14,254 nt of DNA from a virus (Duplodnaviria; Heunggongvirae; Uroviricota; Caudoviricetes), in IMG/VR virus record IMGVR_UViG_2721755727_000004; one strand, given 5' to 3'. The notes beneath the pieces were generated by a model. It saw only the letters and a list, made by a program, of their open reading frames with translations. It was not told the DNA's origin and searched no databases. Below, one piece after another: positions 8,789-13,270 of the stretch; position 1 is the stretch's first letter, and each line of letters opens with the position of its first letter. A program made the translations under genes and the position numbers.

Positions 8789-9127
8789 CTATTTCCCTGA
8801 ATTTACGACGAAACTGTTCGAGCGGGCTGAAGCATTCATGCTCATAACCTTCGCGGAGGTAGATAACCCGTTGTGTTTCCGGCTCCCAACGAATGACTCT
8901 GACGGGCACTCCGTAGTGATCTTTGAACCAGCGGTTAACTTGTCGCAAAGGACTGTCTCCTTCTGCCGGTTGAAATCACCCACAGCCCACTCTGCAAAGC
9001 TGTGGGTTACAATTTCCCTGTCACCTGGTACATTCACTGCATAGCAATATTCCACCTTCGCTTTTCCACCCGGTACAGGAAGCGCAATCAGTTGCGAGCG
9101 ACGGTAGTGTGTTGTTAAACTGTTCAT
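8789..9127 (-). CDS. ymfM: Early-operon protein; candidate SOS-inducible cell-division inhibitor
   Basis: 112-aa ORF; start overlaps the ymfL stop (ATGA). Confidence 0.65.
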
Positions 9128-9693
9128 GCGTTAGTTTCTCCACAACCAGAAGCAATCGACGCCACGACGCCCGGAGCTGCACACTCGCGGGCGTCATTAC
9201 TTTCTGAAATGCAAAAAATTTTGTAGACAAGTGCTGCATGCTCCTGCAGCTTCGAAATTGAGAGATACAGCTCGTCGTTAATTGCTGTCTTCTCATGCGG
9301 TTCCACTACACCGTCTTCGATTGCTGAACGAATCTGTTTTGAATAACTGCCGATCTGTTCAATGACTTCCAGCAGACGCTGGTTAATATCGGCGTTGTCC
9401 ACATCCTCGACGTCAGGAAGAGACACAAAGACGCCATTTGCAGACTGCGCCACAGCATCAGCAATGAAGTGAGTGCCACCAGCACGCTGTAAAACCATTG
9501 CCCATCCCAGCGGGAAAATCTGATCGCCATCTGCACGAAGGCGGTTGAATAAAGCGTTTTCTGTTACATCGAGCCAGTCAGCCGCTTCAGCGTAACCACT
9601 CGGCAACGCCGCGATAGTTTTTCTGACAGCTTTCACGTACCACTCAGGCTGTTTTTCTATTTTCCAGTGATGCTTACCCACGATTAGCCTCAT
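9124..9693 (-). CDS. ymfL: Early-operon regulatory protein (CII-like position)
   Basis: 189-aa ORF immediately downstream of croE in the rightward early operon. Confidence 0.65.
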
Positions 9694-9928: not shown

Positions 9929-9951
9929 ATATGTACCTCCGGTGTACATAT
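9929..9951. promoter_or_regulatory. Operator palindrome ATATGTAC-N7-GTACATAT (OR-like site)
   Basis: Perfect 8-bp inverted repeat with 7-bp spacer between the croE start and cohE. Confidence 0.6.
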
Positions 9952-9979
9952 TACATGATTGAAATGAACCTTCAAGATA

Positions 9980-10000
9980 CTTGTACCTTAACGGTACAAG
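9980..10000. promoter_or_regulatory. Operator palindrome CTTGTACC-TTAAC-GGTACAAG (OR-like site)
   Basis: Perfect 8-bp inverted repeat, 16 bp upstream of the cohE ATG. Confidence 0.6.
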
Positions 10001-10015
10001 GGTTTTAATTTCGTT

Positions 10016-10690
10016 ATGAAAACAATCCATGACATCCGGCGGTCTAACGCCAGAAAACTGAGAGATGGTGTTGGCGGGAATTCTTCCTTTGCCACTATGA
10101 TTGATCGCGAGCCAACCCAGACCAGCAGGTTTATGGGAGATGGTGCTACTAAAAATATCGGTGACAGCATGGCACGACACATCGAAAAATGTTTCGACCT
10201 GCCTGTAGGATGGCTCGATCAAGAACACCAGACAACGAACATCACAAAAAAACCTGATGTTTCAATCACTAATAAACAAATCACATTAGTCCCTGTCATA
10301 TCATGGGTACAGGCCGGAGCATGGAAAGAAGTTGGATATTCTGAGGTTGATTTGAGCACAGCAGAAACGTATCCCTGCCCTGTACCCTGTGGGGAAATGA
10401 CTTATATCTTGCGGGTAATAGGTGATTCAATGATTGATGAGTACCGCCCGGGAGACATGATTTTTGTCGATCCTGAAGTACCTGCCTGCCACGGTGACGA
10501 CGTTATTGCATTGATGCACGATACAGGTGAAACCACCTTCAAAAGGTTGATAGAAGATGGGACACAGCGTTATCTCAAAGCGTTAAACCCAAACTGGCCT
10601 GAGCCTTACATTAAGATCAACGGTAATTGCTCTATAATTGGTACTGTGATTTTCTCAGGAAAACCAAGAAGATACAAAATCAAAGCCTAA
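10016..10690 (+). CDS. cohE: CI-like prophage repressor with LexA-type S24 autopeptidase domain
   Basis: 224 aa; N-terminal HTH, C-terminal S24 peptidase with GDSM serine motif (VIGDSMIDEY) and catalytic lysine region. Confidence 0.9.
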   Translation: MKTIHDIRRSNARKLRDGVGGNSSFATMIDREPTQTSRFMGDGATKNIGDSMARHIEKCFDLPVGWLDQEHQTTNITKKPDVSITNKQITLVPVISWVQAGAWKEVGYSEVDLSTAETYPCPVPCGEMTYILRVIGDSMIDEYRPGDMIFVDPEVPACHGDDVIALMHDTGETTFKRLIEDGTQRYLKALNPNWPEPYIKINGNCSIIGTVIFSGKPRRYKIKA

Positions 10691-10729: not shown

Positions 10730-10763
10730 TTGACAATGTACCTTTGAGATACATAATGTACCC
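10730..10763 (+). promoter_or_regulatory. Near-consensus sigma70 promoter with two AATGTACC operator half-site repeats (pL-like) upstream of ymfJ
   Basis: TTGACA (10730-10735), 16-17 bp spacer, CATAAT (10752-10757); AATGTACC at 10735-10742 and 10755-10762. Confidence 0.6.
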
Positions 10764-10864: not shown

Positions 10865-11173
10865 ATGAATGAGCAGAATTTGAAGCATGTGATCGCATTG
10901 TTGCTGGAAGACGCTAAACGTTTGCAGCAGATAGAGCCAAATGCAGGCACTGAGGCCCGCATTTTGTTAGCAAAACAGGCATTAAAGACTTGCGGGGCGC
11001 AAGCCCCTGGTCGAACCGAGTTCATGAATTTCATGGCTAACACACTCACCCCTCTGCCATGCAATGGAGAGAAGGTGAGCCGTGTTTATCACGACACAAT
11101 GGTTAAGGCTTTAAGAATCGAGCTTGATGGGCTTAGGCGTAAGATCGTAATGAACGAAATCGTTACCAACTAA
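10865..11173 (+). CDS. ymfJ: Hypothetical protein, first gene of the leftward (pL-like) operon
   Basis: 102-aa ORF with GGAGAG RBS; unknown function. Confidence 0.6.
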   Translation: MNEQNLKHVIALLLEDAKRLQQIEPNAGTEARILLAKQALKTCGAQAPGRTEFMNFMANTLTPLPCNGEKVSRVYHDTMVKALRIELDGLRRKIVMNEIVTN

Positions 11174-11452: not shown

Positions 11453-11708
11453 TAAGTTTCCTTGCTTGCTGGCTGTGTGAGAACTCCAGCATACCACCGA
11501 GCCTGAAGTGGTGAAAAGACAGGCACATAACAGCTAAGTATTTTCAACCAGAGAGAATCCTTAGCGTTGTGGTGAATGCGGCTCAGCGCACGCGGGTTAA
11601 GGTTGAGGCTGACAATCGACCTTCTGTGGATACCCACCCGCCTGGTGTGCAACCTTCGCCAGGCACCGGGGGCACCCGACACCACAACTTTATGCTGTGT
11701 GTAGTCTT

Positions 11709-11754
11709 GGCGGTACCAGTTTTTTCCTTAGTCCTTTCTGGTACCGCCCTTTTT
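11709..11754 (+). terminator. Strong hairpin with T-run (intrinsic terminator or attenuator) upstream of xis-int
   Basis: GGCGGTACCAG (11709-11719) and CTGGTACCGCC (11738-11748), perfect 11-bp stem, then CTTTTT. Confidence 0.65.
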
Positions 11755-11916
11755 ACAAAACAGAGAAGAGTATCCCCGGATGACGGGTTAATAACCCGAC
11801 CCATCCTGATAGCTGTGGCCACAGGTGCTCTTCTCTGTTTTGTGGAGAAACTAACCGACCGTGCAGGGTCGATATGCTGAGACTAAGCAGTTAGTGTAGT
11901 AATAAGGTGATCGCAT

Positions 11917-12162
11917 ATGCTTCAAATGTTAACTCTTGAAGAATGGGCTGCTGAAAAATACAGAAGTAATCCTCCAAGTGTGTCCACATTGCGTCGTTAT
12001 GCTAAGCAGAATTTATTTTGTCCACCGGCCATGAAACAAGGCCGGTTATGGCGAGTGCGTGAGGACGCCGAGTTAGTTGGGGAGTTGGTAACACCTGTAA
12101 TCAAGAAAAATGACTCATTACTTTTGCAACGGATTTTGAGTAATGGCAGCCAGACCGCGTAA
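11917..12162 (+). CDS. xisE: Excisionase
   Basis: 81-aa ORF directly upstream of and overlapping the integrase gene; AAGGTGA RBS. Confidence 0.8.
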   Translation: MLQMLTLEEWAAEKYRSNPPSVSTLRRYAKQNLFCPPAMKQGRLWRVREDAELVGELVTPVIKKNDSLLLQRILSNGSQTA

Positions 12163-13270
12163 GAATAATGTTTCAGTCCCTAACTTATATCCGCTTTATA
12201 GTAGGAAGGTAAATAAAGTCTATTGGCGGTATAAGCATCCAGTGACAGGAAAATTCCATGCTTTGGGAACAAACGAAGCTGAAGCTATCGCTATTGCCAC
12301 TGAGGCCAACACTCGCCTGGCTGAACAAAGAACCCGGCAGATTCTGGCTATCAGTGACAGGATCGCAACCAGCAAAGGAAAGGCTATCACAACGTCAACC
12401 TGGTTAGATCGCTATCAAGCGATCCAGGATGACAGGCTTAAAAGTGGTGATATAAGACTCAACACCTATAAACAAAAAGCTAAACCAGTATCCTTGCTCA
12501 GAGAACGAGCAGGAATGAAGTTGATCTCAGCCGTTGATGTCAGAGATATAGCACAATTGCTTGATGAGTATATCGCCGCTGGGCGGCCAAGAATGGCACA
12601 AGTAGTTCGCTCCGTCCTGATTGATGTTTTCAAAGAGGCGCAGCACTACGGAGAAGTACCTCCTGGCTATAACCCAGCATTAGCCACTAAACAACCAAGA
12701 AGAAAAATTACCCGACAACGGCTGAGCCTTGAAGAATGGAAAAAAATCTTCGATATCGCAGACGCTACTCATCGTTACATGGGAAATGCCATGCTGTTAG
12801 CGCTGGTTACTGGTCAGCGGTTAGGTGATATTTCGCGTATGAAATTTAGCGATATTTGGGATGATCATCTTCATGTCATTCAGGAAAAGACCGGGAGCAA
12901 AATCGCAATTCCTCTTTCTCTTCGCCTCAATGCGATTAACTGGAGTTTACGCGATGTAGTAGCCCGCTGCCGTGACTATGCAGTCAGTGCATACTTAGTG
13001 CATTTTTTTCGTTCAACTTCACAAGCAGAGCGCGGAGCGCAGGTTAAAGCCAATACATTGACGATGAATTTTAGTAAAGCGAGAGATTTAGCAAGAATTG
13101 ACTGGGGAGAGGGTTCACCTGCGACATTCCATGAGCAAAGGTCTTTATCTGAACGTCTGTATAAAGAACAGGGGTTAGACACACAAAAACTACTTGGTCA
13201 TAAAACACAACAACAAACCGATCGTTATCATGATGATCGAGGTAAAGGATGGAGCAAAGTAGCGTTGTGA
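12143..13270 (+). CDS. intE: Tyrosine-type site-specific integrase
   Basis: 375-aa ORF; C-terminal catalytic region (LLGHKTQQQTDRYHDD); overlaps xis by 20 bp. Confidence 0.9.
   Translation: MAARPRKNNVSVPNLYPLYSRKVNKVYWRYKHPVTGKFHALGTNEAEAIAIATEANTRLAEQRTRQILAISDRIATSKGKAITTSTWLDRYQAIQDDRLKSGDIRLNTYKQKAKPVSLLRERAGMKLISAVDVRDIAQLLDEYIAAGRPRMAQVVRSVLIDVFKEAQHYGEVPPGYNPALATKQPRRKITRQRLSLEEWKKIFDIADATHRYMGNAMLLALVTGQRLGDISRMKFSDIWDDHLHVIQEKTGSKIAIPLSLRLNAINWSLRDVVARCRDYAVSAYLVHFFRSTSQAERGAQVKANTLTMNFSKARDLARIDWGEGSPATFHEQRSLSERLYKEQGLDTQKLLGHKTQQQTDRYHDDRGKGWSKVAL

Follow-up and report, generated by a model that had tools for sequence, protein, structure and literature searches.

The e14 prophage region annotated as ymfH is probably a conserved RNA module that releases a small RNA with the RprA seed

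The window analyzed here, a stretch of 14,254 nucleotides (nt) of viral DNA (IMG/VR record IMGVR_UViG_2721755727_000004), is 100% identical to the e14 prophage of Escherichia coli K-12 MG1655. We investigated the region from 11560 to 11900, which lies upstream of xisE and intE and coincides with the annotated gene ymfH. An earlier interpretation of the DNA (the sequence-only reading) had described it as GC-rich, structured and non-coding with a terminator ahead of xis, and had suggested that it might be an attenuator or a small RNA (sRNA). We find that the region is probably a conserved RNA module of the e14 early-left operon, which releases an Hfq-bound sRNA of about 62 nt carrying the seed of RprA. 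The module consists of the following elements:

11566-11688, plus strand: D1, a pseudoknotted domain of the STnc100 type (sub-threshold Rfam match and alignment)
11692-11693, plus strand: putative processing site A11692/U11693 (RNA 3' end mapped by Term-seq; candidate 5' end of the sRNA)
11693-11708, plus strand: single-stranded 16-mer seed UGCUGUGUGUAGUCUU (identity with the seed of mature RprA)
11709-11754, plus strand: T1, intrinsic terminator and 3' hairpin of the sRNA (inverted repeat, Term-seq)
11750-11848, plus strand: H2, a long hairpin whose 5' arm includes the T1 U-run (fold z = -5.9, covariation)
11844-11851, plus strand: GGAGAAAC, a Shine-Dalgarno-like motif; at the base of H2 its GGAGA is paired to the U-run of T1
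11856-11871, plus strand: H3, a small hairpin (CGACC-N6-GGTCG) 5' of the first early-left gene

The sequence preceding T1, UGCUGUGUGUAGUCUU, is identical to the RprA seed in 16 of 16 positions and has the same place relative to the hairpin, as checked directly on the K-12 rprA gene. It is present once in the window, where no occurrence is expected. A scan of one genome per species for this 16-mer found mostly a single core-genome locus of the Enterobacterales, from Escherichia to Xenorhabdus, Proteus, Yersinia and Pantoea. This locus reads GUGAAACAACGAAUUGCUGUGUGUAGUCUUUGCCCAUC...GAUGGGCUUUUUUU and is RprA, which was verified on the K-12 rprA gene. RNase E cleaves RprA between GA and AUUGCUG, and the stable active form is about 50 nt long. 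With the cut in GA/AUU, mature RprA begins with AUUGCUGUGUGUAGUCUU and runs straight into the terminator; its start is AUUGCUGUG, and the seed of the mature form, (AU)UGCUGUGUGUAGUCUU, is located beside the terminator. The predicted folds of the e14 RNA, mature RprA and DicF all consist of a free 5' seed and a terminator, and for the 62-nt e14 RNA (11693-11754) the calculated energy is -21 kcal/mol with the seed free.

RNA 3' ends were taken from published Term-seq data for MG1655 in three conditions (Adams et al., 2021), which contain three ends on this strand. One of them (K-12 position 1201195) corresponds to U11754, the last U of T1, so that the transcript end near 11754 on which the sequence-only reading had made its terminator depend is found at exactly this nucleotide. 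The second (1201257) is A11692, four nt past D1 and directly 5' of the seed, where the sequence is unlike a terminator. The third (1201423) corresponds to 11526 and was detected in all three conditions. From the 3' end at 11692, which borders it, we infer that U11693 is the 5' end of the sRNA.

A re-analysis of Hfq RIL-seq data (Bar et al., 2021, Table S1) lists "ymfH" with 81 chimeric fragments and three partners in exponential phase, and with 117 chimeric fragments and four partners in another condition. According to its SIC scores of 0.667 and 0.75 it invariably occupied the second position of the chimera, which is typical of sRNAs, and its sRNA scores (0.113 and 0.094) are close to those of dicF (0.103 and 0.119; Bar et al., 2021). 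With this position in the Hfq chimeras and a 3' hairpin followed by a U-tail, the locus behaves in the published data like an Hfq-dependent base-pairing sRNA. Its only appearance so far is as an unexamined line in a supplementary table.

The inverted repeats described in the sequence-only reading are all present, and some are longer than stated. T1 has a perfect 11-bp stem (11709-11719/11738-11748) followed by CCCTTTTT, with the U-run at 11750-11754; the sequence after the stem reads CCCUUUUU. The repeat given as CAGAGAAGAG/CTCTTCTCTG is the core of a perfect 16-bp inverted repeat (11755-11770/11828-11843), which reaches about 24 bp when G-U pairs are included and then takes in the T1 U-run. 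It encloses GGATGACGGGTTAATAACCCGACCCATCC (11778-11806) and CTGTGGCCACAG (11813-11824), and the hairpin H3 is formed by CGACC/GGTCG at 11856-11860/11867-11871. An additional 9-bp repeat had been missed, GTTGTGGTG at 11566-11574 and CACCACAAC at 11680-11688, which closes a domain of 105 nt, the part with the higher GC content. Folding, which had been recommended as a check, showed that both halves of the region are far more stable than dinucleotide shuffles: z = -4.2 for 11560-11760 and z = -5.9 for 11750-11920, with none of 200 shuffles equally stable in either case. The description as GC-rich holds in that the GC content is 0.53-0.545 compared to 0.35-0.48 in the flanks, but the excess is only modest.

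The recommended covariance-model search yielded no match in the whole window at the Rfam gathering thresholds. When E-value thresholds were used, DicF and STnc100 were the only matches, both sub-threshold, and RprA did not match even at E <= 10; the K-12 rprA gene is located elsewhere. The DicF model (RF00039) matches 11696-11749 with 28.5 bits (gathering score 48; E = 5.9e-5 to 3.7e-4), mainly through the terminator hairpin. The STnc100 model matches the D1 region with 29.2 bits (gathering score 47; E = 1.8e-4) over its full length (1-206). The sequence-only reading had recognized neither the identity with the RprA seed nor the homology with the dicF locus nor the presence of a domain of the STnc100 type.

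The module is conserved in related phages. BLAST with the whole region identified eight phage lineages, and their alignment shows the order D1, 16-mer, terminator, H2, GGAGAAAC, H3 and ribosome-binding site of the first gene. D1 is closed by GUUGUGGUG/CACCACAAC in this alignment and has a variable interior. The 16-mer is almost invariant while the terminator stem differs between lineages: it is GGCGGUACCAG, GUCGGCGUC or GCCCGC, always as a hairpin with a U-run. Scanning viral contigs for the 16-mer returned at least 120 stretches, and 64 of 86 unique segments continue after the 16-mer with a hairpin and a T-run, with 29 different stem starts. Among 41 unique segments anchored on the interior of H2, 25 contain the exact 16-mer, 14 have one mismatch and two a 10-nt deletion.

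H2 is composed of an outer stem of about 24 bp and a three-way interior, which holds 11778-11806 and 11813-11824. All 19 non-redundant H2 homologues have the same shape. Their outer stem is paired to 93.6%, with compensatory changes at five pairs; this level of covariation was not attained in any of 500 column shuffles, and sliding the partner columns gave at most 59% pairing. The 5' arm of H2 starts with the T1 U-run, which is paired with GGAGA. GGAGAAAC, in which this GGAGA is contained, is also the ribosome-binding site of ymfM. The stem of H3 differs between relatives (GCCCC/GGGGC, UGGCGG/CCGCCA, CGCC/GGCG and UCCUC/GAGGA). In the SfV-type phages (L002, L004) H3 is flanked by GGAGAAAC and by an in-frame ATGATG, which precedes the start annotated for yfdP. 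In e14 no more than a six-codon open reading frame (ORF) is left, at 11874-11894 (ATG CTG AGA CTA AGC AGT TAG), which suggests a replacement of yfdP-type genes by xis-int.

For D1, viral contigs were scanned for its 3' hairpin, and 38 non-redundant copies were aligned, the e14 copy and 37 from phages. The domain contains the following pairings:

11566-11574/11680-11688, plus strand: P1
about 11578-11593, plus strand: P2
11641-11647/11657-11663, plus strand: P4
within 11666-11678, plus strand: P5
11599-11605 with 11650-11656, plus strand: pseudoknot, AAGGUUG with CAACCUU

Little or no variation is seen in three elements of the 38 copies: GUGGUGAAU, GCG and most of ACCGGGAGGCACCCGGCACCAC. In place of the ACCGGGAGGCACCCGGCACCAC block e14 has ACCGGGGGCACCCGACACCAC, which differs by a 1-nt deletion and one G-to-A change. 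Compensatory changes are found in P2 and P5, and P1 hardly varies and is therefore uninformative either way. P4 is made of 33 distinct arms among the 38 copies, and its loop can pair over at least 6 bp with the strand directly following P2 in 27 of them (31 distinct sequences). Judged by this complementarity, the pairing of the loop with the upstream strand is a pseudoknot; single-sequence shuffle tests of it are weak, and the case rests on the 31 distinct complementary pairs. RNAalifold applied to the alignment returned P1, P2 and P5 only, and P4 and the pseudoknot were checked per sequence by script. In other phages D1 precedes different single-stranded stretches and different terminators, the terminator often lying within 25-60 nt, and D1 copies are found at several positions in phage genomes. 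The structural conservation in related prophages that the sequence-only reading had asked for is present, with compensatory changes. Of the two functions it had offered, the sRNA is the one supported by the 3' ends at 11754 and 11692, the sRNA-like behavior in Hfq RIL-seq and these changes in related phages.

The surroundings of the module in e14 are as follows:

10016-10690, plus strand: cohE (ymfK), coding for a LexA-like repressor of the cI type
10730-10757, plus strand: PL-like early-left promoter TTGACA-16-CATAAT (promoter scan, 11/12)
10737-10753: candidate CohE-type operator TGTACCTTTGAGATACA, overlapping the PL-like promoter (motif match)
10865-11173, plus strand: ymfJ
11501-11526, plus strand: small hairpin GCCUG...CAGGC, then a strong RNA 3' end at 11526
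11569-11880, plus strand: ymfH, annotated coding sequence of 103 amino acids (RefSeq), judged spurious
11917-12162, plus strand: xisE, downstream of the element
12143-13270, plus strand: intE, downstream of the element

The genes ymfI and lit are encoded on the strand opposite to cohE-intE. Homologous DNA is present in 2159 of 5426 complete E. coli genomes (about 40%) and in the phages SfV, SfII, SfIV, ST64B, 118970_sal3, mEp460, Stx2-converting phages, phiES15, phiNP and F1055. In every relative the module is located 3' of a cI-type repressor gene, on the same strand and immediately ahead of the first early-left gene. This first gene varies: it is yfdP/orf32/sb37, kil or a recombination gene in the relatives and xisE in e14.

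The promoter at 10730-10757 follows directly after the cohE terminator, about 800 nt 5' of the element. The operator motif TGTACC-N5-KRTACA is found here and twice in the cohE-croE intergenic region (9932-9998) only, and none is expected in shuffles. From its sequence the promoter looks like a repressor-controlled promoter of the PL type, and it is likely the source of induced transcripts that run via ymfJ into the element. The early-left operon would thus extend from 10730 over ymfJ and the element as far as xisE and intE. A scan with the sigma-70 consensus found no promoter immediately 5' of D1; the sole good one is that at 10730, which leaves basal PL activity, read-through from cohE and spontaneously induced cells as candidate sources of transcripts without induction. 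Upon treatment with azidothymidine (AZT), e14 genes are up-regulated 36-fold on average, and ymfH, xisE and intE are co-induced by the SOS response as members of one iModulon. The host rprA is 5.4-fold down-regulated under the same treatment, so that the two RNAs sharing the seed would be oppositely regulated during SOS. The hairpin at 11501-11526 may form the upstream border of a stable fragment containing D1, and the block GCCTGAWGTGGTGAAAAGACAGGCACAYAAC in this region is also kept in the phages F1055 and phiES15. The ends at 11526 and 11692 together would bound a D1-containing RNA of about 166 nt.

Of all Term-seq 3' ends in the e14 region, the largest is found outside the module (K-12 1203751, "antisense ymfL"; 9166-9198 on the plus strand), with counts of 14.5, 28.0 and 50.5 million in the three conditions. 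The transcript is antisense to the 3' end of ymfL and the start of ymfM (ymfM ATG at 9127, minus strand), and its end follows the hairpin GACGCCCGGAGCUGCACACUCGCGGGCGUC. No consensus promoter was found for this antisense RNA. It may be an abundant antisense RNA of the OOP type that covers ymfM, a gene for a division inhibitor.

We propose that early-left transcripts, or upstream read-through in uninduced cells, would fold into the pseudoknotted D1 and be cut 3' of it at A11692/U11693; the presumed nuclease is RNase E, which processes DicF and RprA. With the transcript end at U11754 of T1, this would yield an RNA of about 62 nt composed of a 16-nt single-stranded seed, a GC-rich hairpin and a U-tail, which would bind Hfq. 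Since it shares an identical seed with mature RprA, the e14 RNA should act in trans on the targets of processed RprA, and it would do so without the rpoS-activating part of RprA. Polymerases that pass T1 would transcribe H2 and H3 and continue to xis-int. In such read-through transcripts H2 would bury the U-tail and the Shine-Dalgarno-like GGAG in a duplex of about 24 bp, and we propose a role as RNase III-type processing or stability element because of the analogy with the 72-nt species of DicF.

T1 is indeed located between an upstream promoter, probably repressor-controlled, and xis-int, in line with the terminator of the sequence-only reading, and the module could therefore act in cis: T1 would gate xis-int or the early-left genes as an attenuator, with D1 as an antiterminator-like (put- or riboswitch-like) element and the short RNA as a by-product. 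The invariant unpaired nucleotides and the pseudoknot of D1 resemble RNAs that bind ligands or proteins, and many phages have a terminator 25-60 nt after D1. T1 must be passed, since xisE and intE are co-induced with ymfH. Such a function is also compatible with an sRNA: the terminator tL2a of lambda is at the same time the sRNA PreS. However, the 3' arm of D1, CACCAC, is unlike the 5' arm of T1, GGCGGUACCAG, and the minimum free energy fold keeps D1 and T1 apart. No alternative antiterminator fold is apparent in the minimum free energy or centroid fold of 11560-11760, a systematic search for alternative folds not having been made. An attenuator would also leave unexplained why the 16-mer is invariant across unrelated terminators, comparison by eye showed no likeness to HK022 putL/putR, and for PasD and STnc100, both of which contain D1, Hfq-dependent base-pairing as sRNAs has been reported. 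Since the module precedes genes other than xis in most relatives (yfdP, kil or a recombination gene), it is not specific to excision. We regard a purely cis-acting attenuator as rather unlikely.

Potential targets of the e14 RNA were investigated by calculating duplexes. In the csgD 5' untranslated region the e14 seed forms 13 contiguous pairs with ACUACACACAGCA (-22.6 kcal/mol), which none of 500 shuffled seeds equalled; mature RprA reaches -25.0 kcal/mol. At the dgcM start codon region the e14 seed pairs with -17.6 kcal/mol, and 15 of 500 shuffles were as good; the value for RprA is -17.3 kcal/mol. The e14 seed uses the same nucleotides as RprA for both mRNAs, which are reportedly established RprA targets, and the DicF seed pairs with neither csgD nor dgcM. 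The e14 RNA is thus predicted to regulate csgD and dgcM. The rpoS leader was also considered as a target, and pairing was rejected for the e14 seed (-14.9 kcal/mol, with 216 of 300 shuffles as good) and for its precursor. Full RprA pairs with this leader via its upstream CCCCUGAGUGAAACAACGAAUU segment (-40.5 kcal/mol, one of 300 shuffles).

The sRNA could bind Hfq without being a mimic of RprA. The 16-mer would then be kept for another reason, for example recognition by the Hfq rim or RNase E or pairing with a phage mRNA, and it would match RprA because of a common ancestry or because the 3' end of RprA had been captured, with targets not shared. Some phage copies are RprA-like further upstream as well (AAUAACAACAC-UGCUG vs. 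GAAACAACGAAUUGCUG), which suggests descent over convergence, and deletion of e14 lowers biofilm formation and acid resistance, which does not simply point to the loss of a csgD repressor. Yet the stretch that is invariant amid diverging flanks is exactly the one that pairs with csgD (13 bp) and dgcM, and the same stretch is the 5' end of active mature RprA. We consider an sRNA of this kind quite improbable.

The annotation of ymfH is at odds with the statement of the sequence-only reading that the region contains no convincing ORF, and RefSeq does list a protein of 103 amino acids there. Pfam searches with YmfH, YmfJ and YmfI gave nothing informative, and YmfH had no match. SfV and E. coli 10035776, which share about 90% identity with e14 at the DNA level, contain 1-nt indels, so that YmfH can be aligned only across three different frames; their longest ORFs are in frames other than that of ymfH. 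One ymfH homologue in RefSeq is labelled "frameshifted", and nothing is annotated at this position in others. Because of the missing Pfam match, the frame-breaking indels and the frameshifted homologue, ymfH is, on this comparative evidence, judged to be a spurious ORF over a structured RNA. Its frame is not conserved, and the judgement that there is no convincing ORF and that the region is non-coding therefore stands. A genuine 103-amino acid protein gene, with hairpins that are incidental or regulate its translation, would agree with the RefSeq annotation and with the intact ORF in K-12. In a high-throughput screen a ymfH expression plasmid reportedly triggered the retron-Sen2 toxin RcaT; an RNA could bring this about as well, and would do so if ymfH does not encode a protein. 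The start codon is a GTG inside the P1 stem, however, and the substitutions found in relatives keep base pairs and not codons, which together with the Pfam result, the three frames and the frameshifted homologue makes a protein gene very improbable. A feature acting at the DNA level without RNA function, such as a mosaic boundary, a recombination module or a protein-binding site, would suit the junction with varying downstream genes (xis, yfdP, kil or a recombination gene) and the scattered D1 copies, but is hardly credible, since the compensatory changes maintain Watson-Crick and G-U pairs on one strand, which points to RNA, as do the mapped RNA ends and the Hfq chimeras.

Several observations weigh against an Hfq-bound sRNA with the RprA seed. 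Some phages have one-base variants of the seed (C at position 15, A at position 10), and mEp460-type copies have lost 10 nt of it, so that these phages can do without the seed. The use of the seed as bait to retrieve many of the loci inflates its apparent conservation, and the unbiased sample is small, with the seed in six of the eight lineages found by BLAST. The end at 11754 was called only on the third supplement sheet, which we took as M63 glucose, and that at 11692 only in LB at an optical density (OD) of 0.4. The sequence after A11692 is UGC and thus lacks the U at +2 that is preferred by RNase E. The sRNA score of "ymfH" is borderline, and the locus was neither discussed nor tested by Bar et al. 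(2021). The matches to the DicF and STnc100 models stay below the curated Rfam thresholds, with none to the RprA model, and the duplexes with csgD and dgcM, from which regulation is predicted, are computed ones. We still consider the sRNA with the RprA seed to be the probable product of the module.

If so, the K-12 "y-gene" ymfH (b1142) becomes a non-coding locus, and an sRNA is added to the best-studied bacterial genome. A phage would here copy the seed of a host sRNA, whereas the known phage "anti-sRNAs" mimic targets instead, and prophage induction would be linked to the control of curli, biofilm and cyclic di-GMP. Because homologues are present in about 40% of E. coli genomes and in SfV, SfII, ST64B and Stx2-converting phages, any effect would be widespread and include pathogens. 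For e14 itself, a strong terminator and a long processing-type hairpin would be placed between the SOS-controlled promoter and xis-int. DicF, STnc100/PasD and the e14 RNA would be tied into one modular family, with the D1 pseudoknot as a conserved RNA domain.

A more general idea is put forward tentatively, as one that may well turn out to be wrong. Temperate phages of the Enterobacterales might carry an early-left sRNA that copies the seed of RprA, a conserved host regulator of envelope stress, without the rpoS-activating part, so that induction imposes a "processed-RprA" programme, in which csgD and dgcM, regulators of curli and cyclic di-GMP, are repressed, independently of Rcs and while the host rprA is shut down. 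DicF, STnc100/PasD and the e14 RNA would then be one combinatorial system, in which D1 directs the processing and the seed-terminator cassettes are exchangeable. Literature searches found no description of a phage sRNA with the RprA seed, with key older papers outside their reach and novelty accordingly unproven.

An sRNA of a prophage early-left operon that ends at a terminator is an already known kind of RNA, with DicF, lambda PreS and STnc100/PasD as examples. Such sRNAs may be general in K-12 prophages: the early-left region of Rac, between sieB and kilR, is an sRNA candidate in the same RIL-seq re-analysis (score 0.154), and a candidate described as lying in the kilR 5' untranslated region of Rac was tested by Bar et al. 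(2021).

The antiterminator RNAs put of HK022 are likewise structured early-operon RNAs located 5' of terminators, in phages without N, but they consist of two stem-loops of about 65 nt in total, an architecture unlike that of the e14 element. Comparison of putL and putR by eye revealed no similarity, and HK022 is absent among the phage matches listed; we therefore rejected put as a relative. In lambda, the sRNA PreS (LPR1) depends on Hfq and ends at an intrinsic terminator within the early-left operon. It is produced upon prophage induction, is shortened by processing and targets the host mRNAs dnaN and alaS; it lacks D1. PreS/tL2a was rejected as a sequence relative, since it has the same architecture but no sequence similarity.

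STnc100 and PasD are related prophage sRNAs with different seeds and Hfq-dependent base-pairing (Zhu, Shabalina and Storz, 2026 preprint). The e14 element shares with them (RF02076) the GUGGUG/CACCAC closing stem, GAAU, the P2 hairpin and the hairpin CCGGG-AGGCA-CCCGG, and in all of them, each prophage-borne, the 5' domain leads into a single-stranded stretch that varies and then into a terminator. e14 differs in having the GCGGCUCAGCGCACGC version of P2, the 1-nt deletion and G-to-A change in the P5 region, and another seed. The canonical copies are located in the late region 3' of stx or esterase genes, whereas the e14 element is in the early-left operon.

With mature RprA the e14 RNA has in common the identical 16-nt 5' seed directly ahead of a terminator hairpin and U-tail, as well as the same predicted pairing to csgD and dgcM. 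RprA is encoded at ydiK-ydiL under the control of RcsB, while the e14 RNA is prophage-encoded and under repressor/SOS control, has another terminator and lacks the upstream CCCCUGAGUGAAACAACGAAUU module.

A parallel in genome organization is the dicF locus of the Qin prophage. In Qin the order dicA, ydfABC, dicF, dicB ... intQ parallels cohE, ymfJ, the element and xis-int in e14, and dicF is preceded by a D1 of the F1055 type and followed by one of the e14 type (GAUGUGGUGAAUGCGGCUGAGCGCACGCGG ... CACCUGGAGGCACCAGGCACUGCAUCAC). Both RNAs bind Hfq and belong to a repressor-proximal early-left (dicB-type) operon on the same strand as the repressor gene, with D1-type domains alongside. The terminator stems are nearly identical (GGCGGUAUCAG in DicF, GGCGGUACCAG in e14, then CCGCCCUUUUU). 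Judged by sequence, the position of the e14 element, its terminator and the flanking D1 domains are homologous to the Qin dicF locus. The 5' seeds differ (UUUCUGGUGACGUUU in DicF, UGCUGUGUGUAGUCUU in e14), as do the downstream genes, dicB in Qin and xis-int in e14. The 5' end of DicF is generated by RNase E, and its 3' end either by the terminator (53 nt) or by RNase III on the read-through RNA (72 nt). In Qin (L012 2740-3110) the downstream D1 has a long closing stem, AUGAAUUUUGUGAUG/CAUCACAAAAUUCAU, where the RNase III-made 3' end of 72-nt DicF should fall. This 3' end falls in a long duplex just past the terminator, which is the place of H2 in e14.

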